DNA from: a phage
Reading direction: 5' to 3' (one strand)
DNA: 64,000 nt
Sequence record: NC_101842.1
Part shown: one piece after another, positions 2,297 to 52,881 of the stretch
Position numbering within the stretch: position 1 is the first letter of the stretch
Layout: every line of letters starts with the position of its first letter
Translations under genes and position numbers: made by a program
The notes under the pieces: model-generated
What the model saw: the letters and a program-made list of their open reading frames with translations, nothing else
Database searches by the model: none
Told to the model about the DNA's origin: nothing

Positions 2297-2854
2297 CATG
2301 TTGTGTCAGTTAGGTCACATTATGTCAGACAAGTTTTTCCCCTCTTTGTCAAGTGCTGCATGAAAAATTTACAAGCTTGTATGGTAGCATTTTTGCGGCC
2401 CTGTTTACATTCAGGAGTGTATGTATAATCCTTGGTGTGTGGGCGTTTAGACGTCTAGACGGTTGGAAGTATGCAGGTCAATATCTAATCTATTGGCTGC
2501 TAACTATATCCCACACAAATGATAAGAAATATAATTGTTATATGCGTAAACTGTAACTCATGTTATCAATCCCTGTATGTATCGCCAGTGGTGCGCATAA
2601 TGGGTATTATGTTAAATTGCCCGTAATGATAACTATTCTCACAATGATAGGTATTCTCATTCACCCCCACAAGATAGGTTGCAAATGTTGTGCCACTGTG
2701 TGAACGGCCTAGCCTATTAATTTGCCTCACTGCCTTGATATTTGAGAATTGTTATAAGAATGAGAAGTATTCCCATTTCGTCCGCCTGGCAGCACTCCTG
2801 TAGGTCAGGTCAAAATCGTGGTAGAATTGGGCCTGTTCAGATATTTCTGGCTGA

Positions 2855-4064
2855 CTCTTCAGGTCTGTGTGGGAAAAGCCAACCTCTCCGGCGGGGCATG
2901 GGGTCATGACGGGAAAATTGCAGGTCAATTAAAAAATTTACGTGGTGTATGAAGCGCTCTTCAGGTAAGGCATGTATTATGGGATGAAACCCTCTTCAGG
3001 CAATGATATTTGTGGGTGTGATATTTGCTGGAAAGCCAGATATGACGGGACTCCCGGCGGGGCAGGGGTAGTACAGACAGGGAAAATATGGAGGATGTGG
3101 TTGGGTAAATTGATCAGGCAGGTAGAGTATGGAATATGTTACAGGTATGTTAAATAGGGAGGCTGAATATCTGTAGGATTTGTGTGTAAAATCAAAGACT
3201 TAAGTGGTGTTGTGGTATTTTCTATAAATAATTCAAGTTTAATAGGTAATATTTGTCTCTATTCGCTTTGTGTGGTAAACAGATTCAGATGAGATTGGTT
3301 TACAAGTGTATACATAATATACAAATTAAAGATACAAGAAACCCCCCTCCCCCTTCGGCTACCATTCACCTTTTCCTCTGACTGGTACTTAAACACTTAT
3401 TCAGACTCTTCAGGTTATCACCCATATATCATATGGCAGTGACTGGTGTCCTCCGGCCCCTCTTTCGTCACCCGTCCGCTTCGCCATGCTAATGCCATAG
3501 CCAATGGTTCGGTTGTTCACCCTGCTCACTCAGGTGTATCTCCATACCCCTTCAAACCGAAGAGAACAGAAAACCCGAATTACTCGGTAAAAGAAAAGAG
3601 AAGAACTTAATTTTATCAGGATAGGCAAGAATGTCAAGGCATGACTGCTCACTAAACAAGCAAACAGTCATGTGTGGGAGGTAAGTGATTGTGGTGGTGG
3701 GAAATTTAGTTGAAAGATGTGCTACAGGTGCGCTTCCAGCACTTTAGCAGGGCAGCTAATTGTGTGTCAGTCCAGCGGTTCATCCTCTACTTCACTGAAA
3801 TCAATGTTCATGGTCTCTTCCCAACCATCGATCTCAGCACAAGAGTGGAGTTCTTTAGGACTTACTCCCAAAGCATCAGCAACAGAGTCCATATTTAACA
3901 CCTCTGGCAGGTATGATTCATCGAATTCAAGGTAAATCAGGCCACGAGTGTTGTCAGCTCCACCAAATATTTCTATCTTCATGAAATCTCCTCTGGAAAT
4001 GAGAGTGTGAACAGGGTTTTATACGTTCCGATGCACAGGAATTATGCACGTTTGCCTCTTCAGG
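2855..4064. repeat. dispersed 9-mer CTCTTCAGG (5 copies) plus duplicated CCGGCGGGGCA(T)GGGG block
   Basis: CTCTTCAGG at 2855, 2957, 2992, 3406, 4056; ccggcggggcatgggg at about 2886 and ccggcggggcagggg at about 3052. Confidence 0.65.
3767..3982 (-). CDS. hypothetical small acidic protein (71 aa)
   Basis: ORF track; N-terminus MKIEIFGG resembles other MK(I/V)E(I/L) small proteins in the array. Confidence 0.4.
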   Translation of the reverse strand: MKIEIFGGADNTRGLIYLEFDESYLPEVLNMDSVADALGVSPKELHSCAEIDGWEETMNIDFSEVEDEPLD

Positions 4065-4402: not shown

Positions 4403-4618
4403 TGTGTATTCCATATTCTCCAAACTGTGTGGATACTATCACGGTAGCGGTAATGTGTCAACAGAAACGCCGCGAGGGTTTGGTTAAAATCCGAGCGTAT
4501 GGTGATTTGGGTCAAAACGGACGTGCGTTCTCGCTACGCTCGAAAGAGAGATTTGTTTGTAGGAAGCTCTTAAACGCTCTGTAATGAGATTATCTGTCCA
4601 AGGTATGCAATCGTGCAC

Positions 4619-42999: not shown

Positions 43000-43350
43000 A
43001 TGAAAGATGGGGATAAGCTGCTATATCTTAAAGTCCCCCTTGAAATACTATCTATGTCAAAAGTTTTGAATGACACAACTGGGGAGGTTGTTGTTCTTGA
43101 CTTGTATGACAAGATCGTATACTGCTACCTGCACAACTGGTATAAGCTTGGAGGAAGTTCACGCTTCACACCCAGCACAAGGAAAATTGCAGCAGATGTT
43201 GGAATAAAGAAAACAAAAGCAGCAGCGTGCGTTAAAACTTTAGAATGTGCGGGAGTGGTTGAAATATCCACACAAGGGAGAGGTAAAAGATGCACATTTT
43301 CCAAAGTTTTGCCACCAGAAGAAGTTATTCGAATGTCAACAACTGGTTAG
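43000..43350 (+). CDS. small putative HTH DNA-binding protein (116 aa)
   Basis: helix-turn-helix-like segment TRKIAADVGIKKTKAAACVKTLE; tandem palindromic repeats immediately downstream. Confidence 0.4.
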   Translation: MKDGDKLLYLKVPLEILSMSKVLNDTTGEVVVLDLYDKIVYCYLHNWYKLGGSSRFTPSTRKIAADVGIKKTKAAACVKTLECAGVVEISTQGRGKRCTFSKVLPPEEVIRMSTTG

Positions 43351-43425
43351 ACCAGTAAAAACTTAAATATCTGTACTATAAGGATTCGTATGTTTTATGT
43401 TCGCTCTGGAGCAGAGGTTAGTAAC

Positions 43426-43507
43426 TGTCCGTGATACGGACACTACTGTCCGTCACGCGGACACATCTGCCCGTAATACGGACACTAACTGTCCGTGATA
43501 CGGACAC
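43426..43507. repeat. four tandem 18-bp palindromic iterons (TGTCCGT-N-ACGGACAC), period 21-22 bp
   Basis: copies at 43426-43443, 43447-43464, 43468-43485, 43490-43507. Confidence 0.8.
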
Positions 43508-43640
43508 ATAAAGAATATAACTAAAATAACTAAATAATAAAAAATAAAAGATCTAGTACTTATGGTACTAAGTACATATACTTAACTTATGTAGAATATA
43601 CTAGATCCTAAGTACCATGTTTTAAATTTATTACTTACTA
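43508..43640. other. AT-rich tract with short inverted repeats, adjacent to iterons
   Basis: strongly A+T-biased with TAGTAC/GTACTA and CTAAGTAC repeats. Confidence 0.5.
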
Positions 43641-43905
43641 TGGGCAGTGTCGGCCCTTCATTGGCACTCGCCTACGAGGGGCGAGATGCCGGGCCTCTTT
43701 GGTGCACACAATAACAGAAGTTCATACATACAGGTCTGTTAACATGTGTGGGAGCGAAGCGATAGCGCAGGCCAAAGGCCGAGCACTGATGTGGACCACC
43801 GACGAAAGCTTGCCAGCGCCGTAAGGAGTCGGTTGAGAGTCTCCCGCGCGAGCTTGGATGAAGTTTATGTGTGGAAACTGACAAGAAGGCCCCTAAATCG
43901 CTCCA
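43640..43905 (+). ncRNA. candidate structured non-coding RNA (G+C-rich island with nested stems); strand unknown
   Basis: G+C-rich relative to flanks; nested pairings ggccc/gggcc, ggca/tgcc, ctcgcc/ggcgag at about 43650-43695; only ORF is an antisense low-complexity frame. Confidence 0.25.
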
Positions 43906-44010
43906 CAGCTATATAAACTATACCAGGTAATGCAATCGCACCAGTTTGGTAGAAAAGCTCGTTACAAAGCGATACAGTGAGTTTTTCTATAACTTGAAGA
44001 GGAGGCAGCT

Positions 44011-44589
44011 ATGGGTTCACGCAAAGATGACCGTGAAAAGATTGCAAAACGTTATCAGAATGAAGAACAGATGGAGAAAACTTTCAAGTGGAAGCCCGGT
44101 TTCCAGCGTAATCATTCTAACGCTCGTGATCGTAAGCATCCGGATAAGTGGCTAACACCGCCAAATGATGGCATGCAGGTTGGGGATGAGAAGGAGATGT
44201 CGCCTGGAAAAGATGGCAACTACATTCGCACTAAGGACGCTGGTCCAAAGGATGACAGCTATCTTGTAGATAAGGTTCTTGATGGTATCAATGTAGATGT
44301 TGACACTGCACGAAACCTTTTTCTTGGGTGGTATCGCACAGGTTTTTTCGACATCAAGGCTATTCGTCGTGTTTGTGATATTAAAAAGTCTGCATATGAT
44401 GACGACTCGTTACATCGCACCCTGAGACAATATTCAGAAAGATATGGTCATCCGGTTATCACTCTTGACGATGTTAACGAAGTGATGTATCATGCAGAGG
44501 TTGTTGCAGGAAGATTTGGTGATGCATATCTTGATATCCTTTCTGCAAAGGATGAGGTAATGTTAAATAAGATTTACTATGAACGCTGA
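44011..44589 (+). CDS. hypothetical protein (192 aa)
   Basis: ORF track; strong RBS gaggagg. Confidence 0.5.
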   Translation: MGSRKDDREKIAKRYQNEEQMEKTFKWKPGFQRNHSNARDRKHPDKWLTPPNDGMQVGDEKEMSPGKDGNYIRTKDAGPKDDSYLVDKVLDGINVDVDTARNLFLGWYRTGFFDIKAIRRVCDIKKSAYDDDSLHRTLRQYSERYGHPVITLDDVNEVMYHAEVVAGRFGDAYLDILSAKDEVMLNKIYYER

Positions 44590-44788
44590 GGAGCGCTTAA
44601 TGAACAACCCGGTAGCAAAGAACTGTAATAAGTTCAACAAGTCTGCAATTCACACTGACAGGAAAAAGAGCTGGTCTCCTGACATTGACGAGGAGCTTGA
44701 GAGTTACTTTGAAGACCTGGTCACTAATGCAGATGAGGTTGCGATTAAAGAATACGCAGACAGGAAGGATAAGGCCGGAATCTGTTGA
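44579..44788 (+). CDS. hypothetical small protein (69 aa)
   Basis: ORF track. Confidence 0.4.
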   Translation: MNAEERLMNNPVAKNCNKFNKSAIHTDRKKSWSPDIDEELESYFEDLVTNADEVAIKEYADRKDKAGIC

Positions 44789-44864
44789 CAAAAATAGTGT
44801 TACCTGATAAGATCTGCAATATGATGTGATGCAATTTTAACTTACGAGGTCTACAGGTAATGCT

Positions 44865-45107
44865 ATGTTTAAGGTTAAGCTCGTTTTTCGTTCCATGAAT
44901 GAGGATTATTTAGAAGATGAAGGTGAATTTCGTGCACTGGATGATGCAATAGATTTTGCCAACGACTTAGCTTGTATGAATACGGGTTATGGGCTATGCT
45001 GTTGGGATGGTGGTGTTCAGATCGGTGATAGCAAGATCTTCTACTTCTACCCTGAGCCTGATAACAAACAAATTAAGTATGTTTTATTTATTTGTGCTTT
45101 ACAATGA
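44865..45107 (+). CDS. hypothetical small protein (80 aa)
   Basis: ORF track. Confidence 0.4.
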   Translation: MFKVKLVFRSMNEDYLEDEGEFRALDDAIDFANDLACMNTGYGLCCWDGGVQIGDSKIFYFYPEPDNKQIKYVLFICALQ

Positions 45108-45139
45108 GGTTGTTTTCGTGTATCATGATGAATATCCAA

Positions 45140-45420
45140 TTTAAAGATGAATTTGATGGCTTTATCTCCGGATGCTTTGAAACAGGGTTCGGAGAAGGCT
45201 GAGTTCCCCTTAGAGGGCTTGATAGTGCACCACACTTAAAATGGTAGGGGCAGCCAGCACATGACGATGTGACCCCGGCCAACCTGTAATAAGGTCGAGC
45301 CAAAGTGCGGTAATGGGCTCTGGTAACCCACTTGTTGGGTCTTGCTGGTCCAGGACGCTGGACAAGTCGCATGGAATACCACCCTGCGGCGAACTTGACA
45401 ATCAGTATTTGCTATGATAA
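45140..45420 (+). ncRNA. candidate structured non-coding RNA (second G+C-rich island); strand unknown
   Basis: four overlapping minus-strand ORFs in different frames over the same span indicate stop-codon depletion from composition. Confidence 0.25.
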
Positions 45421-45452
45421 AATCCACCTATCACGTGATAATGGAGGAAACA

Positions 45453-45790
45453 TGGCGGATACAACTAAAAAGCGTCGCCGTAGAGGCAGACCTCTGAAAG
45501 AGGAGTCCAACGCCATTCAGCTAGAGAAGAACATCCTTGATATGAAGGAATCTTTTATAGCGATGGTTCCAGAAGCTCACAAAGTTTTAAGAGAGCTGAT
45601 GTTGGACCCGAAAACCAAACAAAATATTCGTCAAAGCATTGCAGAGTATGTTCTTGATAAGGCAGACCGAATGCAGGAAGAATATGATGAGATGTTTGGT
45701 GAAGAGGAAGAGGTGGTAGTAGAAGAGGCTGAAAAACCAGCACCTTTTATGCCATTTACCACAGAAATACAACCTGTTAGCAATAGCTAA
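45453..45790 (+). CDS. hypothetical protein with N-terminal basic RGRP (AT-hook-like) motif and acidic C-tail
   Basis: MADTTKKRRRRGRPLKEES...; RBS ggagga. Confidence 0.5.
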
Positions 45791-45799
45791 AATATTTTC

Positions 45800-45828
45800 T
45801 TGACAAACTTTGCTTAACAGTGTAATAT
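45800..45828 (+). promoter_or_regulatory. sigma70-like promoter TTGACA-17-TAATAT upstream of tRNA cluster
   Basis: consensus -35, 17-nt spacer, TG immediately before -10. Confidence 0.6.
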
Positions 45829-45886
45829 TGTAAACATGGTCTCCCACCTTTTCTGGCGGCTAAGGTGTAAAAGAAAGCCACCCAGT

Positions 45887-45961
45887 GCCCTGTTAGCTTA
45901 GTGGATAAAGCAGCGGCCTTCTAAGCCGTTGACACTGGTTCGAGTCCAGTACGGGGTGCCA
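45887..45961 (+). tRNA. tRNA-Arg (anticodon TCT)
   Basis: hand-folded cloverleaf: acceptor gccctgt/acggggt, anticodon loop cttctaa, T-loop ttcgagt, encoded CCA. Confidence 0.7.
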
Positions 45962-45965
45962 AATT

Positions 45966-46052
45966 GGGGAGTTATCCCGTAGGGGTAGCGGTGTAGACTG
46001 TAAATCTATTGTCATTGCGACTCGGGTGGTTCGACTCCACCACTCCCCACCA
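45966..46052 (+). tRNA. tRNA-Tyr (anticodon GTA), long variable arm
   Basis: acceptor ggggagt/actcccc, anticodon loop ctgtaaa, T-loop ttcgact, encoded CCA. Confidence 0.75.
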
Positions 46053-46166
46053 AATTTATAGTTTTAAATGCATAAATCATACAGATAATGGCATTGATAT
46101 TTATCGTCGTTTATACTAGTCACTAACTGCTCGAAAATCAGTGTCATTATTAGTATTGTTTATAAA

Positions 46167-46257
46167 TGAGGGTAGGGAGCAATGGTGCTCAAGCGGTCTT
46201 GAAAACCGTCCCGTTGAGGATGACTTGATGATGGTTCGATTCCATTACCCTCAGCCA
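46167..46257 (+). tRNA. tRNA-Ser (anticodon TGA), long variable arm
   Basis: acceptor tgagggt/accctca, 3-bp D stem, anticodon loop cttgaaa, T-loop ttcgatt, discriminator G, encoded CCA. Confidence 0.65.
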
Positions 46258-46355
46258 TATTGTTGACCTTGTAATTAAGCGAAAGCCGGAAGCAGAACCG
46301 GATTATCAAATGTTACAGTCGTCATCGCCGACTAGCAACATGGTCAACATACTGA

Positions 46356-46452
46356 GCTAGGTAAGCCCTTTGGCAAGGGCGAGGATTTTTAATCCTGAAA
46401 ATAGACGAGGTAGTCGTTGAATACATAGGTGGTTCGATTCCATCACCTAGCA
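46356..46452 (+). tRNA. atypical tRNA-like element (97 nt)
   Basis: perfect 7-bp acceptor gctaggt/acctagc, canonical T-arm, D-arm-like hairpin, but irregular anticodon arm and about 29-nt variable region; no CCA. Confidence 0.4.
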
Positions 46453-46459
46453 CCTTTTT

Positions 46460-46535
46460 GCTGATGTAGCACAATTGGTAGTGCAATTGATTTGTAATCA
46501 ATAGGTTGCAGGTTCAAGTCCTGCCATCAGCACCA
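46460..46535 (+). tRNA. tRNA-Thr (anticodon TGT)
   Basis: acceptor gctgatg/catcagc, anticodon loop tttgtaa, T-loop ttcaagt, encoded CCA. Confidence 0.75.
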
Positions 46536-46536
46536 T

Positions 46537-46611
46537 GGCCCTGTAGCTGGAAGGTTCAAGCAAGCGACTCATAATCGCCAGACGGTGGTTCAATTCCACC
46601 CAGGGCCACCA
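46537..46611 (+). tRNA. tRNA-Met or tRNA-Ile2 (anticodon CAT), elongator type
   Basis: acceptor ggccctg/cagggcc with G1-C72, anticodon loop ctcataa, T-loop ttcaatt, encoded CCA. Confidence 0.65.
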
Positions 46612-46622
46612 AATAATAAATA

Positions 46623-46699
46623 CTCCGCGTAGCTCAGCTTGGTAGAGCGCCTGATTTGGGATCAGGAGGTCGAGTGTTCGAATCACTCCGTGGAGACCA
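46623..46699 (+). tRNA. tRNA-Pro (anticodon TGG)
   Basis: C1-G72 start, D-loop agcttggta, anticodon loop tttggga, T-loop ttcgaat, encoded CCA. Confidence 0.75.
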
Positions 46700-46745
46700 C
46701 TTTCAGTTATACTTTAAACATATACAAACAAAAGGAACCTTTAAA

Positions 46746-47015
46746 ATGTATACACTTAAAATTGTAGAGCGTGTAAATCCAACCCATACCGTAGATTTTC
46801 GTGACGATTTCAATCCTCTGGCTGTAAATCTTCGAGAGTCATATCATGAACTCAGCTGCGATGCAGTGGTGGTCTTTTTTGAAGACAACTCTGAAGGGGC
46901 GGTAGCTTGTGTTGTTGATAGTGAGCAGAAGTTTTATATTTACAGAGATGTAGATGCATACTTGATGAATGAAAATGCAGTTACTGTTAGAATCATCCAC
47001 CGAGTGCCTCGATAA
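46746..47015 (+). CDS. hypothetical protein (89 aa, start refined after tRNA-Pro)
   Basis: listed ORF start overlaps tRNA-Pro; internal ATG has aaggaa RBS. Confidence 0.45.
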   Translation: MYTLKIVERVNPTHTVDFRDDFNPLAVNLRESYHELSCDAVVVFFEDNSEGAVACVVDSEQKFYIYRDVDAYLMNENAVTVRIIHRVPR

Positions 47016-47120: not shown

Positions 47121-47519
47121 ATGATTTCAGTTTTAACATGGCTGAGCAGGTATAGAGGGATCATAAAAGGTTTAGTTTTTGCAGCTGCGATAGGTACAGC
47201 TTATCTTGGGGCCGTGTATTGGTTTAACTCTAAGCTTAATGATGCCTACCAAGAAGGTGTGTCAGCAACAGAGTTAAAGTGGGAACGGATCCTTGATCAG
47301 CAACAAAAGCAGGCCGACAAAATTAAAATGGGCCACGCAGAGGAGGTTAAAAACCTTGAAAAATCCCTTTCTGATCTACAGGATAAATTAAATATGGCTG
47401 AGAAGGCAGGTAAAGAAAAGCAGATTATTTACCTCCAGTCACCTGAGGGTAAGAAGTCAACACTCCCTGATCAGCTTATAGATATTTATAATGAGAGTAT
47501 TAATCAGGAGGGTAGATGA
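47121..47519 (+). CDS. i-spanin-like protein (N-terminal TMD plus coiled coil)
   Basis: TM helix GLVFAAAIGTAYLGAVYWF then charged helical region; ATGA overlap with next gene. Confidence 0.55.
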   Translation: MISVLTWLSRYRGIIKGLVFAAAIGTAYLGAVYWFNSKLNDAYQEGVSATELKWERILDQQQKQADKIKMGHAEEVKNLEKSLSDLQDKLNMAEKAGKEKQIIYLQSPEGKKSTLPDQLIDIYNESINQEGR

Positions 47520-47803
47520 GAGTTGCTACACTGTTTATTGTGTGCTTGTTATTATGTGGGTGTGCAACCAGCGTTGAGAGAGAATACAAGATTGACCCTC
47601 CGGATGTAGGAAGGTTGATTGTTAAACCCCCGGAAGGTGCCATGAAACCACCTGCTAAAGCTATGCCTTTGAAGAAAGGTGCGCCAGATGCAGTGAATTC
47701 TGGCATTATGAGGGATAATAATCTGTCTTGTAGCAATGATAGAGCTAAATTGATCATTTTGCAAGACTATATTAGAACACTGTTTCCAAAGGAGAGAGGT
47801 TAA
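47516..47803 (+). CDS. o-spanin-like outer-membrane lipoprotein (Pro-rich)
   Basis: signal with LLLCGC lipobox-like site, Pro-rich mature region. Confidence 0.55.
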   Translation: MRVATLFIVCLLLCGCATSVEREYKIDPPDVGRLIVKPPEGAMKPPAKAMPLKKGAPDAVNSGIMRDNNLSCSNDRAKLIILQDYIRTLFPKERG

Positions 47804-49350
47804 TGTCTAAGATTTACGGACCGTGTTCTGAAAAGCAGAAGATGATCCTAGAAAACGATGCAGATATTTTGGTAATCGGCGGTGCCGCAGGGTCTGGCAA
47901 GTCGTTCCTCTTGCAGTTGATGCCACTTAAAATTATTGATGACCCCCACAGCTCTGTGGTTATGTTCCGAAGAACAACCCCACAGTTGGAAGGTGAGGGT
48001 GGACTATGGCCTAAAGCAGTAGCTATTTATAGTGATCTGCCTGAAAACATTAAGCCAAAGTTCAGAGAGAAGGATCATAAGTTCATTTTTCCACGGTTTG
48101 ATCCGAACACTGGTAAGTGGGATAGAAGCAAAAAGGGAGCTGTTGTAAAATACTGCCATATGGAGTATGTACAAGATAAGCTTAACCATCAGGGGCTTGA
48201 GTACACCATGGTTTGCTTCGATGAGGGCACGCAGTTCGAATGGGAGCAGATAGACTATCTGATGTCTCGTCTGCGATCTCAGTCAAAGTATCCATCAAGA
48301 ATGGTTATCAGCTGTAACCCCGATTCAGAACACATGCTTGCCAAACTGGTTAGATGGTGGTTGGACGATGAAGGGTATCCAGATCCGGAGAAATGCGGTA
48401 AGAAAAGATATTTTATCCGACGCGACGGTGAATTTATCTGGGGAGACTCTAAAGAAGAGTTGATAGAGAAATACACCACGGTTAACGGACTTGGCGTAGA
48501 GATCAAGCCAAGACCGTTGTCATTCTCGTTCATAGGCGCAACAATATTCGATAATCCTGTCTGTTTGAGAGACAACCCAGAATACCTTGCTTTCCTCGAA
48601 GGTCTACCAGAGCTGGAAAAAGCTCAGCTTCTCCATGGTAACTGGTTTGCAAAGCCTGAGGGTGCAAACTATTTTCAAAGATCTTTCCTTCGTGATGCCG
48701 ATAGAGTACCTCTTGGGTCAGTATCTTGCAGGGCATGGGATAAGGCAGGAACCGAGAGAACTTCCGGTAATAAATTTCCTGACTTTACTGCCAGTATTAA
48801 GGTAAGTAAAGATAGCGACGGCTTTTATTACCTGTCCGGTGATTATTGTCCTGAGAACGTGGATGACGGGAGGTATTCCACAGGTCTGGAAGGCAAGTTC
48901 TGTAAAAAGGCTGGTGAACGAGATGTGATCATCAGGAAACAGGCGCAGTTCGATGGTGATGATTGCATAATCGTCTTCTCTGTGGACCCAGGGCAGGCAG
49001 GTAAGAGTGAGTTCTTAACCTCCTCCAGATCCTTGCTTGCCGAAGGGTTCAGGGTTGAAGAAGACCCAATGCCTTCCAACAAGTCTAAACTGACAAGGTT
49101 CTCACCTTTTGCCAATCTTGCCCAACAAGGAATGGTGAGGATTGTAAAATCCAGTTTCCATCCTGATACTCTGGAAGCATTTCTGACTGAACTTGAAAAA
49201 TTCAACGGGGAAAGATCAACATTTAACAGAAAAGACGACTGGGCCGACTGTGTAGCTTCTGCGATTAATTTCCTAGAGAAAGAGGAGGTAGCACTTCCTT
49301 GTGTGATTCCATCAATCTCATCACCTTCTATGTTCAAGCGTTTTATCTAA
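47803..49350 (+). CDS. terminase large subunit
   Basis: Walker A GGAAGSGKS near N-terminus, 515 aa, directly upstream of portal. Confidence 0.8.
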   Translation: MSKIYGPCSEKQKMILENDADILVIGGAAGSGKSFLLQLMPLKIIDDPHSSVVMFRRTTPQLEGEGGLWPKAVAIYSDLPENIKPKFREKDHKFIFPRFDPNTGKWDRSKKGAVVKYCHMEYVQDKLNHQGLEYTMVCFDEGTQFEWEQIDYLMSRLRSQSKYPSRMVISCNPDSEHMLAKLVRWWLDDEGYPDPEKCGKKRYFIRRDGEFIWGDSKEELIEKYTTVNGLGVEIKPRPLSFSFIGATIFDNPVCLRDNPEYLAFLEGLPELEKAQLLHGNWFAKPEGANYFQRSFLRDADRVPLGSVSCRAWDKAGTERTSGNKFPDFTASIKVSKDSDGFYYLSGDYCPENVDDGRYSTGLEGKFCKKAGERDVIIRKQAQFDGDDCIIVFSVDPGQAGKSEFLTSSRSLLAEGFRVEEDPMPSNKSKLTRFSPFANLAQQGMVRIVKSSFHPDTLEAFLTELEKFNGERSTFNRKDDWADCVASAINFLEKEEVALPCVIPSISSPSMFKRFI

Positions 49351-49353
49351 GTG

Positions 49354-49382
49354 TTGCCAATCTTAATTAGATGTGGTACAAT
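49354..49382 (+). promoter_or_regulatory. promoter candidate TTGCCA-17-TACAAT
   Basis: between terminase and portal; followed by hairpin agccctc/gagggct with T-run at about 49399-49424. Confidence 0.4.
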
Positions 49383-49450
49383 AAAGTAATTGGAGATACT
49401 AGCCCTCTGACGAGGGCTATTTTGTTATACTGTTTTGAGGGGTAAAGCTT

Positions 49451-51007
49451 GTGTCCAAAAAGAACCGCAGGAAACACAACGCCACAGCCAAAACTGTGAA
49501 TAAATCTGGGAACGCAGGCGCACCAACTCATAATGTTCGTATGAGTGAGATCGGTTCTGGCGCACTTTCCCAAATTATGGCAGAATCGCAATCTATGATG
49601 GTTGAGGAATTGCGTTGGCCTCAGCTGATTGCCACAGTGGAGACTATGAAATGTGATTCCACAGTTGCTACTGCCTTAGATACAAAATATGTTTTCATCA
49701 CGAAAGCATTCAATGATTTTAAGATCCTTTATAATGTTAAAAGTGAAGACTCTAAGAAAGCTGCCGAGCTTATAGAGTATTCTTTGCGTAATTTGGCAAA
49801 CCAACAAACTCTTCGAGATATTGCAAGAAGCGCAGCTACCTTTAACGAGTATGGTTTTTCACTGTTTGAGAAAGTATACCGCAGAGAGAAAGAAGGTAAA
49901 TATGCCGGGATGCTTCTTATCGATAAAATTGCATTCCGACCTCAGGCCAGCCTGTCCAGATCAGAGCCGTTTGTTTTTGATAAGAATAGCAGAACACTGA
50001 CAGGTATTTATCAGTCACCTAATGCATTTCTAAACACTCAGAATGCACGCTGGGCTGGACCTCTTGCTGCAATGCCTTCAAAAGGCTTTAATGAGCCTGA
50101 AATTTTCATCCCTGCTAAAAAGCTTATGCTCATGACCCTGTCAGGAACAGAATCTAACCCTGCAGGTGTGTCACCTATGATAGGTTGCTACAGATCTTTC
50201 CGTGAGAAAGTTCTGATTGAAAACCTTGAGGTTGTTGGCTGTTCCAAAGACCTTGGTGGTGTGCTTGAGCTGAAAATTCCTTCCAATATTTTGAACAAGG
50301 CCAGCATTGACCCGAATTCAATGGAAGGGAGAATGGTTGCAGACCTTATGCTTGACGCAGCAAACGCCCATAGTGGTGAGCAAAGTTTCTTTATACTTCC
50401 GTCTGATAGAGATAAGTCTGGTAAAGAGCTTTACTCCATGACCCTGAAGGGGGTTGACGGTATGGGTAAGCAGTATTCCACTAAAGATTTGATTGATGCC
50501 CGTAAGAAGGCGATTCTTGACCGTTTCGGTGCTGGCTTTATTAACCTCGGTAACGATAACGTTGGATCCTTCTCTCTGTCTGAGTCAAAACAGTCTATCC
50601 ATGGTCATTTTGTTCAGCGTGATATAGATATTATCACTGAAGCCTTCAATAAGGATCTTATTCCACAGCTTCTGGCATTGAATGGTATCATCCTTGAAGA
50701 TGATGATATGCCTAAACTGAAACCTGGTCTGATTGAAGAAGTGGATATGGAGAGCTTCTCCAAGTTTGTCCAGAGGATCGGTGCTGTAGGTTACTTGCCA
50801 AAAACTCCTGCAGTAATTAATAAGATTCTTGAAGTAGGCGGGTTTGATGAAAGATTTGACGAGGACATGGATCAGGAAGAGCTGATGAAGCTCTTGGGCC
50901 AGGACATCAGTAGAGCTGGTGATGGAATGGCTGCAGGATCCACTGGCAACGGCACTTCTAAGATATCATCAACCAGAGATAATTCCATATCCAACATGGA
51001 AAATTAA
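49451..51007 (+). CDS. portal protein (putative; GTG start)
   Basis: 518 aa immediately after large terminase, acidic C-terminus; assignment by synteny and size. Confidence 0.55.
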   Translation: MSKKNRRKHNATAKTVNKSGNAGAPTHNVRMSEIGSGALSQIMAESQSMMVEELRWPQLIATVETMKCDSTVATALDTKYVFITKAFNDFKILYNVKSEDSKKAAELIEYSLRNLANQQTLRDIARSAATFNEYGFSLFEKVYRREKEGKYAGMLLIDKIAFRPQASLSRSEPFVFDKNSRTLTGIYQSPNAFLNTQNARWAGPLAAMPSKGFNEPEIFIPAKKLMLMTLSGTESNPAGVSPMIGCYRSFREKVLIENLEVVGCSKDLGGVLELKIPSNILNKASIDPNSMEGRMVADLMLDAANAHSGEQSFFILPSDRDKSGKELYSMTLKGVDGMGKQYSTKDLIDARKKAILDRFGAGFINLGNDNVGSFSLSESKQSIHGHFVQRDIDIITEAFNKDLIPQLLALNGIILEDDDMPKLKPGLIEEVDMESFSKFVQRIGAVGYLPKTPAVINKILEVGGFDERFDEDMDQEELMKLLGQDISRAGDGMAAGSTGNGTSKISSTRDNSISNMEN

Positions 51008-51074
51008 AAATTATCAACACAGGGGGTTGCAAAACCTCCTTTGGCGTGATAAAATAATCCACATGGGGAATAAG

Positions 51075-51494
51075 ATGCCACAGGAAGAAATGATTTCCTA
51101 CGAAATCATCTACGAGCCTGACACTAAAGATGCTCACGGTGAGTGGATGAGTAAAGACACCATCAAAAAGGCTAAAGATAACTGGGACGCAGCATACGCT
51201 GCAGGCCTAGTTTCTGAAAACCTTTTCCACTTGACCTCTACAGATGCTTTCACTATTGAAAAGACGTGGATTCAAGAAGAGTTTGATGTTGTAGTAATTG
51301 GCACTGAGCAGGTCATCAAGGCTGGCTCTTGGGTTGCTAAAGTTAAATACAATAATCCTGAATTATGGGAAGCTAAGAAGGCTGGCATTGTTGGTGGCCT
51401 AAGCATTCAGGCAACAGGTAATGTTGATGAAGAAACTGGTGAAATTACCAACGTAAACTTCGGGATCAGTGTTGTAGAAGAGGGCAATGAATAA
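51075..51494 (+). CDS. hypothetical head-module protein (about 139 aa; start uncertain, 51063 also possible)
   Basis: ORF between portal and scaffold; no protease motifs recognised. Confidence 0.4.
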   Translation: MPQEEMISYEIIYEPDTKDAHGEWMSKDTIKKAKDNWDAAYAAGLVSENLFHLTSTDAFTIEKTWIQEEFDVVVIGTEQVIKAGSWVAKVKYNNPELWEAKKAGIVGGLSIQATGNVDEETGEITNVNFGISVVEEGNE

Positions 51495-52471
51495 TGTCTG
51501 AAAAAACGATTACTATTAAAGAGAAGGGGATTGCCCTGTGCCATAAGGCGCAAGGCTATAGCGCTAACAACAGACCTGTATCTCTTTTGATGAAGAGTGA
51601 TCTTAAGCCTGAGCAGTTAACAGACGATATTGTTAAGGCACTTCGCCAAGTTACTGTGGAGCTTAGTTTTGAAGAATACCTGCGTCGTTTCTTCGATATG
51701 TGGTATGATGATGCTAAAGCACTTGCACACATGCTTGGTTTTGAGATTGAAGAGGAGGCTTGGGCTAAAGAGCATCCTGATTGGGAATGGGCGCAAGCTG
51801 ACGCAGAGTCTTGTATTGCATGGCTGGAAGAGCGTTGTGATAACGTGACCATTCATAAGGCTGCAAAAGAAGGCAAGCAGCTTAGTGTAGTAGATCAGTA
51901 CAGCCTGTTAAAAACACAACAGATTTTTGAACAAGTAACCGCTGATCTCTTCGATAAAGAAGGGAACCTGATCAAGGCGGTACAGGAACCTGCTGAGGTG
52001 GATAAAACTACCGAGGTGGATGATGTTGCAAAATCCGCAAATACCGAGGAGAATCCGGTGGACGTAACCAAAACTAAAGAGTATCTGGATCTGCTGAAGC
52101 AAGTAGAAGAGCTGAAAGCAACCCAGAGTAAAGCTGAAGAAATCATCAAGGCCCAGGTTGAAGTTGAAAAAGCTAAAATGCTGACTAAGGCTCAAGCTTT
52201 AAGCTTTGTTGGTGAAGAAGATCATGCAACCCTGGTTGACTTCATGCTGGAAAAAGCTAACGAACCTATCGTAGCTATGCTGGAGAAAGCTCAAGCAAAA
52301 ATTGAAGAGCTGGAAGCAGAGGTGCATAAAACCAAAGAAGAGTTTGCCACCACTGAACATGGTAATGATGGCGAACCTGTTGTGGATGATATTGCAAAAT
52401 CCGCAGAAGAAATTCTTGCTGAAAACGTTGCAAAAGCACTTGCTCGTGCACGTGCAGAATCTACCAAATAA
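51494..52471 (+). CDS. capsid scaffolding protein (putative)
   Basis: acidic, helical, E/K/A-rich with repeated VDD(V/I)AKSA motif; between portal and major capsid. Confidence 0.55.
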   Translation: MSEKTITIKEKGIALCHKAQGYSANNRPVSLLMKSDLKPEQLTDDIVKALRQVTVELSFEEYLRRFFDMWYDDAKALAHMLGFEIEEEAWAKEHPDWEWAQADAESCIAWLEERCDNVTIHKAAKEGKQLSVVDQYSLLKTQQIFEQVTADLFDKEGNLIKAVQEPAEVDKTTEVDDVAKSANTEENPVDVTKTKEYLDLLKQVEELKATQSKAEEIIKAQVEVEKAKMLTKAQALSFVGEEDHATLVDFMLEKANEPIVAMLEKAQAKIEELEAEVHKTKEEFATTEHGNDGEPVVDDIAKSAEEILAENVAKALARARAESTK

Positions 52472-52491
52472 GACATTAACGGGGGAAATAA

Positions 52492-52881
52492 ATGATTACC
52501 GCTCAATATTCTGATATCGTGCTCGGCAAAGTTGATTCTAGCGATGCTGGCTACAATTTTAAAGAGATGGAAATTACACTGACAGAGCACCATCATGCTG
52601 GCACGGTAGTGACAAAAGATGGTAGCATTGCCAATCAGGACGGTTCAGACGCATATGGCGTTCTGGTGGATCGTGCTTTAATTCCAGACTCTGCTGGTAA
52701 AGTACATATCGCTGAACCTCTTGGCACAAAGAAATATAAACTGGTTGTTGCTGTGCGTGGTGTTACTTTTGCCAAGGATAAATTACTGGCAACTGGTGGC
52801 GCTAAAGCAGCACAGGCTGTGTTAGACAAGCTTGAGGCTCTGGGTAACAAGGTTCAAGTCCAGACCCTTGGTGATGAGTAA
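52492..52881 (+). CDS. hypothetical capsid-associated protein (possible decoration protein)
   Basis: 129 aa directly upstream of major capsid gene. Confidence 0.35.
   Translation: MITAQYSDIVLGKVDSSDAGYNFKEMEITLTEHHHAGTVVTKDGSIANQDGSDAYGVLVDRALIPDSAGKVHIAEPLGTKKYKLVVAVRGVTFAKDKLLATGGAKAAQAVLDKLEALGNKVQVQTLGDE

Follow-up and report, generated by a model that had tools for sequence, protein, structure and literature searches.

The island described here lies on record NC_101842.1, a stretch of phage DNA of 64,000 nucleotides that is referred to as a whole as the window. Over 44800-45900 the window matches rV5-like coliphages (genus Vequintavirus) with 99.5-99.9% identity, and in the rV5 record the island falls between ORF75 (window 44865-45107) and ORF74. 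There are two sites of the sigma-70 type at this locus (Table 1). The upstream promoter-like site is present in all rV5-like variants, one of which reads TATGAT, and the downstream one is annotated as P74 in rV5. Bases ~45203-45394, which lie between them, do not code for protein and are read as a structured RNA; no intrinsic terminator was found 3′ of this RNA in the window. A sister genus within the Vequintavirinae has the same arrangement, with its own promoter (TTGACA-16-TATACT with TG, i.e., an extended -10; 11/12 consensus positions) directly 5′ of the RNA and a second promoter directly 3′ of it, in the same place as P74. An earlier reading made from the letters alone (the sequence-only reading) had placed the island just upstream of an AT-hook protein gene and a tRNA promoter, and this is correct: ORF74 starts at 45452, the tRNA promoter is at 45800-45828, and the tRNA cluster begins at 45887.

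The boundaries of 45140-45420 given by that reading hold for the central RNA part and have to be withdrawn at both edges. Bases 45140-45202, the first ~60 nt, are part of a candidate small ORF and of a hairpin inside it (45165-45195), which is outside the RNA core. This ORF is annotated in some phage records; its peptide KDEFDGF is retained in the sister genus, in an ORF of 8 codons that follows a Shine-Dalgarno-like GGAGAGG, and in one close relative (L042) it carries two substitutions, both synonymous and pair-preserving. Its coding status is uncertain. The last 26 nt of the island are the sigma-70 promoter of ORF74. As ORF74 has its own promoter inside the edge of the island, it would be too simple to take the island for a leader of the AT-hook gene. 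The N-terminus of ORF74 reads KKRRRRGRP, and homologues of the protein are confined to the Vequintavirinae and unclassified relatives. At the six Vequintavirinae loci that were examined the homologue lies inside a tRNA cluster in five, and the RNA core is absent from all six; a partnership of the RNA with ORF74, of the kind formed by N and boxB, was therefore rejected.

The composition of the island is unusual. Its G+C content is 0.498 (0.557 for the inner 192 nt, 45203-45394), compared with 0.43 for the whole window; only 3.5% of 281-nt windows reach the value of 45140-45420, and the sole richer island is the G+C maximum of the window at 43631-43942, which the sequence-only reading had called the first. 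Four ORFs on the minus strand (Table 1) overlap across the island and together occupy all three frames, as that reading had described. The triplets TTA, CTA and TCA, which are stops on the antisense strand, occur 6 times in 45140-45420 where 12.1 are expected (P ~0.016), and twice in 45203-45394 where 6.8 are expected (P ~0.01); plus-strand stops in the island are not depleted. Thus, the G+C enrichment and the antisense stop depletion that had been noticed in the sequence are real, the latter being moderately significant. The depletion reflects the composition of a structured RNA rather than coding.

Table 1. Features at and around the island, in coordinates of the window
Feature	Position	Strand	Remarks
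Minus-strand ORF 1	45047-45235	-	62 aa
Minus-strand ORF 2	45088-45372	-	94 aa
Candidate small ORF	45092..45202	+	36 codons from TTG, 25 from ATG 45125; phrog_6828, E=3.5e-9
Sigma-70-type promoter-like site	45098..45126	+	TTTACA-17-TATCAT; 10/12 consensus positions
5′ arm, hairpin CCCCUUAGAGGG	45206-45217	+	near-identical in the sister genus
5′ arm, linker CUUGAUAGUGC	between the two hairpins of 45203..45246	+	
5′ arm, hairpin ACCA-loop-UGGU	45229-45245	+	near-identical in the sister genus
Minus-strand ORF 3	45210-45401	-	63 aa
Minus-strand ORF 4	45236-45427	-	63 aa
P1, GGGG / CCCC	45247-50 / 45273-76	+	replaced by other complementary sequences elsewhere
Internal loop CAGCCAG between P1 and P2	within 45247..45276	+	
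P2, CACAU-GACG-AUGUG	45258-45271	+	replaced by other complementary sequences elsewhere
Conserved core, 46 nt	45275-45320	+	column n is window base 45274+n
P3	45277-81 with 45314 and 45316-19	+	bulged G45315; three-way junction
P3a, ACCU-GUAAUA-AGGU	45282-45295	+	followed by the CGA junction
P3b, GC/GC	45299-300 / 45307-8	+	loop CAAAGU
Closing junction GGUAA	45309-13	+	
3′ arm	45320..45394	+	three hairpins and UGCUGG
3′ arm, variable hairpin	45326-45340	+	deleted in L044, where UGCUGG persists
UGCUGG	45343-48	+	candidate pseudoknot strand for CCAGCA 45254-59
Hairpin GUCCAG-GACG-CUGGAC	45348-63	+	
Hairpin GCAKGG-AAUACCA-CCCUGC	45369-87	+	holds the cctgcggcg singled out by the sequence-only reading; A-to-G changes give U-G pairs
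Sigma-70 promoter of ORF74 (P74)	45395..45423	+	TTGACA-17-TAAAAT, TG-extended; 11/12; annotated in rV5
ORF74, arginine-rich / AT-hook-like	45452..45790	+	phrog_3330 (family without assigned function); neighbour, not part of the RNA

The RNA comprises a 5′ arm, a domain of two helices (P1 and P2), a core of 46 nt and a 3′ arm. Between Vequintavirus and the sister genus the 5′ arm is nearly identical and the core is about 100% identical, whereas the flanking DNA and genes are ~66% identical; indels in the 5′ arm are found in the hairpin loop only. The sister genus has a second copy of the CCCNUAGAGGGCUUGAAAGUGC-plus-hairpin unit 3′ of its core.

Statistics of the core were calculated from 52 distinct sequences, with pairing and covariation scored on a subset of 35. 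The three inner pairs of P3 are paired in all 52, each by three to five types of pair (CG/GC/AU; CG/UA/GC/AU/GU; AU/UG/UA/CG/GC), and the bulged G (G41) is kept in 49. Within the subset, pairing extends to 96.9% of cells, and covariation scores 0.357, compared with 0.083 for shuffled controls and at most 0.056 for structures slid along the alignment. P3 holds G-U pairs; read on the opposite strand, these would be A-C mismatches. P3b consists of two pairs, G25-C34 and C26-G33, the second of which is seen as CG, UA and GC; positions 26 and 33 co-vary in four lineages. P3a shows a single covariation: a T4-like contig (L071) has the element in tandem just upstream of a start codon, and its second copy reads GCCU/AGGC. 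This copy, which also has a U-A pair in P3b, was found by the second of two covariance models (R2). The form of P3a (ACCU-GUARNA-AGGU) and of the junctions was preset by the search patterns, and their invariance is partly a matter of ascertainment. The window's own core scores 70.0 bits with model R1 and 68.7 bits with R2, where members reach at least 37 bits and chance pattern matches at most 27 bits.

Two other pairings were rejected. A first register of P3b (C22-G35, G23-C34, G25-Y32, C26-G31) leaves the change G23A uncompensated 8 times, and a long helix ACUAACCU/AGGUUAGU in the group of phage Pylas is contradicted by a U-to-C change in two members (L063, L074) that is compensated within P3. 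Minimum free energy folds are not more stable than those of shuffled sequences on either strand in any lineage (z = -1.4 to +1.0), so the case for structure rests on covariation and not on energy. Three structural features draw support from covariation: the three-way junction with its bulged G, the hairpin domain 5′ of it and, for some lineages, a pseudoknot. It is very probable that these sequences form a family of structured RNA under selection; the sequence-only reading had already pointed towards a structured RNA.

A 5′ hairpin domain precedes the core in nearly every lineage, with sequences that are unrelated between lineages yet complementary within each. P1 is GGAAC/GUUCC in the sister genus, GGGAA/UUCCC in T4, GGGAG/CUCCC in Dhakavirus, and AAAGG/CCUUU, AAAGC/GCUUU or AAAGA/UCUUU in T4-like type B; P2 is CUACG-GACG-CGUAG in the sister genus and CCUCAU/AUGAGG in T4. 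The GACG loop of P2 is common to the CACAU/AUGUG and CUACG/CGUAG versions. A reduced copy in Mosigvirus (L050) appears without the domain. An unpaired stretch of the 5′ domain can pair with bases that follow the core at a distance of 5-25 nt. Three pairs of this pseudoknot are fully paired in 15 sequences of T4-like type B (CG; CG/AU/GC; GC/CG), and for that type the pseudoknot is supported by covariation. In the other lineages it is suggested by complementarity that is specific to each (CGGAA/UUCCG, CGGUU/AGCCG, CUCCGG/CCGGAG, GGACC/GGUCC, UGAGG/CCUCA), T4-like type A having only a 3-bp candidate. A shuffle test of the duplex energy was significant only in the group of Pylas, Phapecoctavirus and siphoviruses, where an outer stem contributes. 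The CCAGCA/UGCUGG pairing of the window's lineage, for which the energy test was not significant, is a candidate; one relative (L033) reads UGUUGG, by which a G-C pair becomes G-U.

The core is found in about 800 phage records from at least 8 lineages, 118 of them full-length rV5-like. In a blastn search with the island, about 690 T4-like phages matched a piece of 43 nt (45275-45317) with 90-97% identity, mostly in DNA without annotation. On one side of this piece is vs.8, and on the other denV or an internal-protein gene, in Tequatrovirus, Dhakavirus, Mosigvirus, Jiaodavirus, Kanagawavirus and Tegunavirus. In the T4 record the vs.8 coding sequence is annotated as covering the core, as the N-terminus of Vs.8; this extended frame is broken in RB10 and unused in other annotations. 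Further carriers came from pattern scans of IMG/VR and metagenomes followed by the two covariance models. These are the sister genus (L034, L038, L070, L077-79), some Phapecoctavirus (between tRNA-Thr and tRNA-Gly), the N4-like Klebsiella phage Pylas, Klebsiella siphoviruses of ~46 kb (250-400 nt upstream of their tRNAs), Kagunavirus-like siphoviruses, a jumbo-phage contig of 359 kb (52 nt after tRNA-Glu) and several unclassified contigs. Matches judged to be due to chance in coding DNA were excluded (L030, L069/75/76, L083, L085-89, L093, L100, L101, L103, L106). All classified members infect Enterobacterales, and several divergent members are on contigs of unknown host. The core was absent from 5,426 E. 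coli genomes searched by blastn, and 185,579 reference bacterial genomes (GTDB) gave one match, a chance match inside a coding region.

The surroundings of the core vary, with two regularities: wherever orientation is readable, the core is in the sense of the flanking genes or tRNAs, and it is often inside or beside tRNA clusters. Downstream there may be vs.8, another gene (in L018), tRNAs, non-coding hairpins, a promoter or a distant terminator. In Pylas, Phapecoctavirus and the Klebsiella siphoviruses the motif is within a non-coding cassette of 0.4-1 kb made up of long hairpins. A promoter-proximal position is seen in the Vequintavirinae only, where the distance from the end of the -10 hexamer to the core is 156 nt in Vequintavirus and 88-89 nt in the sister genus; it was not found in T4-like phages, Phapecoctavirus, Pylas or the siphoviruses. 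One further member (L080) has a weaker promoter-like site that was recognised by eye, below the 10/12 threshold of the scan.

Comparison with known RNAs bears out the statement of the sequence-only reading that no full match is evident. Among 4227 families of Rfam 15, only tRNAs pass the gathering threshold in the window; in searches of 2.6 kb and of 206 nt the best match overlapping the element was to an archaeal snoRNA (12.8 bits), and no family matches the copies from T4-like phages, Phapecoctavirus, Pylas, the sister genus or L048. The 7 genes detected by ARAGORN are at 45887-46699; neither it nor the Rfam tRNA model (RF00005) finds anything in 45140-45420, and tRNA or tmRNA identity was rejected. 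The claim that short stretches resemble conserved elements of known structured RNAs did not survive. The island has in common with E. coli M1 RNA or rRNA just a 9-mer and some words of 10-11 letters, of which the best are GUGCGGUAA (M1 position 185) and an 11-mer in 23S rRNA; shuffled controls give equal ones, and no local alignment with M1 RNA, 16S, 23S or 5S rRNA or tRNAs, i.e., with host RNAs that might be mimicked, reached P<=0.05 against shuffles. In Pylas a weak match to tmRNA_permuted lies 400 nt downstream of the motif and not on it. No description of the element was found in the literature; it could be among the ~8,500 candidate phage RNAs that were catalogued in 2023 (PMC10690425).

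One of the closest analogies is offered by the putL and putR RNAs of phage HK022, antiterminator RNAs that work independently of any protein encoded by the phage and bind E. coli RNA polymerase (PMC9378689). They are folded RNAs of ~70 nt that are transcribed from early sigma-70 promoters, are host-specific and are highly conserved in sequence; they consist of two stem-loops with a triple helix and act via the zinc-binding domain of the β′ subunit of RNA polymerase (PMC9378689). Like put, the element is without a co-occurring cognate phage protein, and in the Vequintavirinae it follows a strong promoter. Unlike put, it is a three-way junction with a pseudoknot (a comparison by description, not by sequence), and it is promoter-proximal in one group of lineages only, with the next promoter directly after it. 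The element is rated as a new RNA family within phage structured RNAs.

Other RNAs associated with phage tRNA genes are also similar in part. The T4 species 1 and 2 RNAs (rnaC and rnaD) are stable RNAs in the tRNA cluster, presumably co-processed with the phage tRNAs. They are thus, like the element, non-tRNA RNAs co-located with tRNAs, but they have no sequence similarity to it (blastn-short and nhmmer found nothing in window 43000-47000, and homology was rejected), and the T4 copy of the motif is ~6 kb away, between denV and vs.8. GOLLD and ROOL are, similarly, structured RNAs borne by phages or prophages and frequently beside tRNA genes; however, there is no Rfam match to them, the module is 5-8 times smaller, and they occur in Lactobacillales or rumen organisms whereas the element is in phages of Enterobacterales.

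The comparisons demonstrate, at the level of sequence, a selected, strand-specific and pseudoknot-prone RNA fold that is autonomous of context and often beside tRNA genes. The following mechanism is proposed for its action. Host RNA polymerase would transcribe the region early in infection from the promoter-like site at 45098-45126, together with read-through from the promoter of ORF75, and the 3′ end of the RNA would be formed at the next promoter or by processing near there. The centre of the transcript would be an autonomous module of about 100 nt, in which the P1/P2 domain is followed by the 46-nt three-way junction (P3 with its bulged G, P3a capped by GUARNA, P3b of two pairs, and the junctions CRA and GGUAA), and in at least some lineages a pseudoknot would form between the 5′ domain and bases that come shortly after the core. 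The near-invariant surface of this module may be offered to one conserved host macromolecule. We infer a single host partner because the cargo is varied, there is no co-occurring protein, the junction is near invariant, promoters flank the element and the hosts are enterobacterial. A surface of 46 nt that is near invariant over at least 8 lineages and absent from bacterial genomes likewise points to a common interaction with the enterobacterial cell. The partner might be guessed to be the transcription or termination machinery, or an RNA-processing or defence protein, and the RNA could be a decoy that is present in abundance, or else modify RNA polymerase in the manner of put.

The degrees of confidence in these statements differ. 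Whether the element works by binding a host macromolecule is, in our judgement, evenly balanced, and the same middling confidence attaches to the proposed explanation as a whole. Either sub-mode, decoy or put-like modifier, taken singly, is doubtful, to about the same degree; the tandem copies just before a start codon fit a cis-regulator better than a decoy. The broader idea of a new functional class of RNA, which would reprogramme RNA polymerase or termination on the untranslated transcripts of tRNA clusters, or be a decoy for a defence or RNA-processing protein, or be a ribozyme, is put forward tentatively.

The strongest of the rival explanations sees the element as a self-cleaving ribozyme of a new class, or else as a recruitment site for a host RNase; in either form it would cut polycistronic transcripts at the boundaries between an ORF or tRNA and the next unit. 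The fold is compact (~100 nt) and pseudoknotted, its near-invariant nucleotides are clustered in junctions and loops, and its placement is independent of context and always between units (tRNA-tRNA, ORF-tRNA or ORF-ORF). Small HDV-like theta ribozymes also occur beside phage tRNAs, and like the element they are of at most ~100 nt and patchily distributed among phages. The helix order, in which P1 is followed by a pseudoknot strand outside P1 and P3, resembles the nested double pseudoknot of the HDV-like type. However, P3 of HDV-like ribozymes has 3 bp and a 7-nt loop, whereas P2 of the element is a hairpin of 5-6 bp with a tetraloop or hexaloop (4-6 nt); neither a catalytic C nor a site of cleavage can be pointed to, and no Rfam ribozyme model, including the HDV-type models, matched at E<=10 in the 206-nt search. 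Moreover, a simple processing site would need neither a dedicated strong promoter nor conserved lineage-specific arms. A role in cleavage or processing is regarded as unlikely.

It is less likely still that the element is a sensor acting in cis, i.e., a riboswitch or a translational operator that works via the pseudoknot strand near a ribosome-binding site or terminator. The T4-like phages are suggestive, as a Shine-Dalgarno sequence of the GGA type and an AUG upstream of vs.8 follow 8-20 nt after the 3′ pseudoknot strand, and one of them has its two tandem copies upstream of vs.8; in a Kagunavirus-like phage an intrinsic terminator follows about 95 nt after the element. A riboswitch would be expected to precede one class of downstream gene and to overlap an expression platform. 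What follows the element differs from lineage to lineage, in the Vequintavirinae a strong promoter parts it from the next gene, no conserved alternative pairing with a Shine-Dalgarno sequence was found, and the terminator is too distant for a usual expression platform.

A role at the level of DNA, as the target of a homing endonuclease or of recombination, with near identity maintained by gene conversion, is very improbable. The patchy distribution, with presence/absence polymorphism inside Phapecoctavirus, would suit it, and genes for homing endonucleases are common here (segB in the T4 tRNA cluster, another near the relatives of L105). Against it, orientation follows transcription, compensatory changes keep RNA pairs including G-U, the flanking helices vary in sequence and stay complementary, and conservation of the core across deeply diverged T4-like genera argues for selection. 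A functionless relic of composition, such as decayed tRNA genes, has even less in its favour: PVP-SE1, 4MG, BIS47, Hena1 and PBES02 do carry tRNA genes ahead of the ORF74 homologue where rV5 has the island, but the tRNA searches find nothing here, the core is conserved well beyond its flanks and common to unrelated phages, and the covariation contradicts such a relic. Least credible of all is a protein-coding role, either for the minus-strand ORFs or for a plus-strand ORF at 45313-45417: reading frames of 34-94 codons exist and T4 annotates its copy as part of Vs.8, yet no minus-strand ORF matches PHROG at E<=0.01 (one marginal match has E=0.05), coding was rejected for the plus-strand ORF as well, in a 231-nt slice of every rV5-like variant the three antisense frames are open simultaneously over 63-76 of 77 codons (63-69 in one count), close relatives differ by indels of 1, 3 and 10 nt that would shift any reading frame, frames are broken by indels between RB10 and T4 and in L020, L033 and L044, and the variable positions lie together in one loop, not at third codon positions, and give Gly, Trp and Arg on the antisense frame. 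The sequence-only reading was thus right to ascribe these ORFs to compositional bias.

The element is unannotated, or misannotated as the N-terminus of Vs.8, in T4, which is among the best-studied viruses, and in hundreds of its relatives, including phages used for phage therapy and for research on defence systems (the BASEL collection among them). If its partner is RNA polymerase, Rho, an RNase or a defence protein, it would provide a new tool and expose a further layer of the conflict between phage and host; a catalytic element would amount to a new class of ribozyme. Phage tRNA clusters, beside which it so often lies, are thought to counter host defences that target tRNAs. In T4, the element is upstream of the gene block from vs.8 to vs.4, the last of which we take to be the anti-CBASS sponge Acb2.

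The RNA motif, which has a conserved 46-nt three-way junction at its core, forms one of the units in a non-coding cassette, composed of long hairpins, that is common to Pylas, Phapecoctavirus and ~46-kb Klebsiella siphoviruses; this cassette is flanked by GUUGUG...CACAAC, and the motif within it is enclosed by an outer stem. One unit of the cassette carries a T-arm-like GCGGUUCGAUUCCGC, and there are weak matches to tmRNA_permuted and beta_tmRNA (E about 1e-3) at Pylas 1939-2074. In a T4-like contig of 177 kb (L071 5094-5250, minus strand), the motif is present upstream of vs.8 in two tandem copies with a spacing of ~70 nt, the second of which contains the sole covariation seen in P3a, the hairpin inside the core (GCCU/AGGC). 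A Kagunavirus-like phage (L105 9195-9305) has a promoter-like TTGACA...TACTTA directly 3′ of the motif and, about 50 nt beyond it, a strong intrinsic terminator, CCCGGC...GCCGGGAUUUUUUUU; these two elements could constitute a tiny sRNA unit.

Features in the window and in related phage loci
Feature	Location	Remarks
Non-coding cassette with the motif	L049 (Pylas) 1290-2300; L052 1020-1500; L063 and relatives	
vs.8, T4 reference annotation	L031 (T4) 2754-3413 = NC_000866 64253-64912	
Small ORF, phrog_6828	window 45092-45202; counterpart L038 (sister genus) ~4554-4580	
Four tandem repeats	window 43422-43507	21-22 nt each
tRNA-like gene	window 46356-46454	99 nt; ARAGORN and Rfam tRNA model

The ATG chosen as the start of vs.8 in the T4 reference annotation is situated within P2, the hairpin in the 5′ domain of the RNA motif, and vs.8 gains ~40 codons through this upstream ATG. 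The extended N-terminus in the T4 record is probably a mis-annotation, given that its start lies inside P2, that the protein begins at MRTF.../MKF... in other T4-like records, and that a frameshift in RB10 falls within the region matching the extension. The 18 records named “Campylobacter phage” (MG0656xx), which have 96-99.6% identity to rV5-like coliphages over the motif region, probably carry a wrong label or represent contaminants.

At the 5′ edge of the G+C-rich island that holds the motif is the small phrog_6828 ORF, whose KDEFDGF segment has 100% nucleotide identity between the window and the sister genus. In the sister genus, the ORF is shortened to 8 codons, preceded by a Shine-Dalgarno-like GGAGAGG and followed by a promoter, an arrangement in which it may encode a leader peptide. 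Window 45201-45209 reads GAGTTCCCC, the same 9 nt with which the E. coli type I-E CRISPR repeat begins, and a short CCCC/GGG hairpin follows. The likeness to the repeat is probably due to chance, as GAGTTCCCC is retained only in part in the sister genus (as GCGTTCCCC and GCGTATCCC).

The highest G+C content in the window (0.544) is that of another, “first” G+C-rich island (43631-43942). The 118 rV5-like records alone carry this island; the sister genus lacks it. Within it is rV5 “ORF78” (43746-43916, arginine-rich), which looks spurious. The island has no Rfam match besides a weak one to rli43 (21.9 bits), which lies mostly on the A+T-rich stretch upstream and touches only the 5′ edge of the island. 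Each of the four tandem repeats is a palindrome, TGTCCGTNANNCGGACA, of the GT...AC type; located about 350 nt downstream of the gene for a GntR-like regulator (rV5 ORF79), they look like an operator array.

The large terminase gene in the rV5 record is joined from three pieces (window 47400-52500), which implies two introns; no group I intron match was obtained in this region in Rfam at E<=0.01, and the sister-genus locus has two sub-threshold Intron_gpI matches (40-43 bits). In a Phapecoctavirus-like contig (L036 1670-1698), 29 nt just upstream of tRNA-Thr have 90% identity to the 5′ end of rnaD, the stable RNA (species 2) of T4 (E about 6e-4). The tRNA-like gene of the window, which is without annotation in the rV5 record, is positioned between tRNA-Ser and tRNA-Thr, has a 4-base anticodon, “atcc”, according to ARAGORN, and scores 35.5 bits with the Rfam model. 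The same oddity is present in locus L096. The gene of the window contains two terminator-like hairpins with T-runs, at 46365-46380 and 46426-46449.
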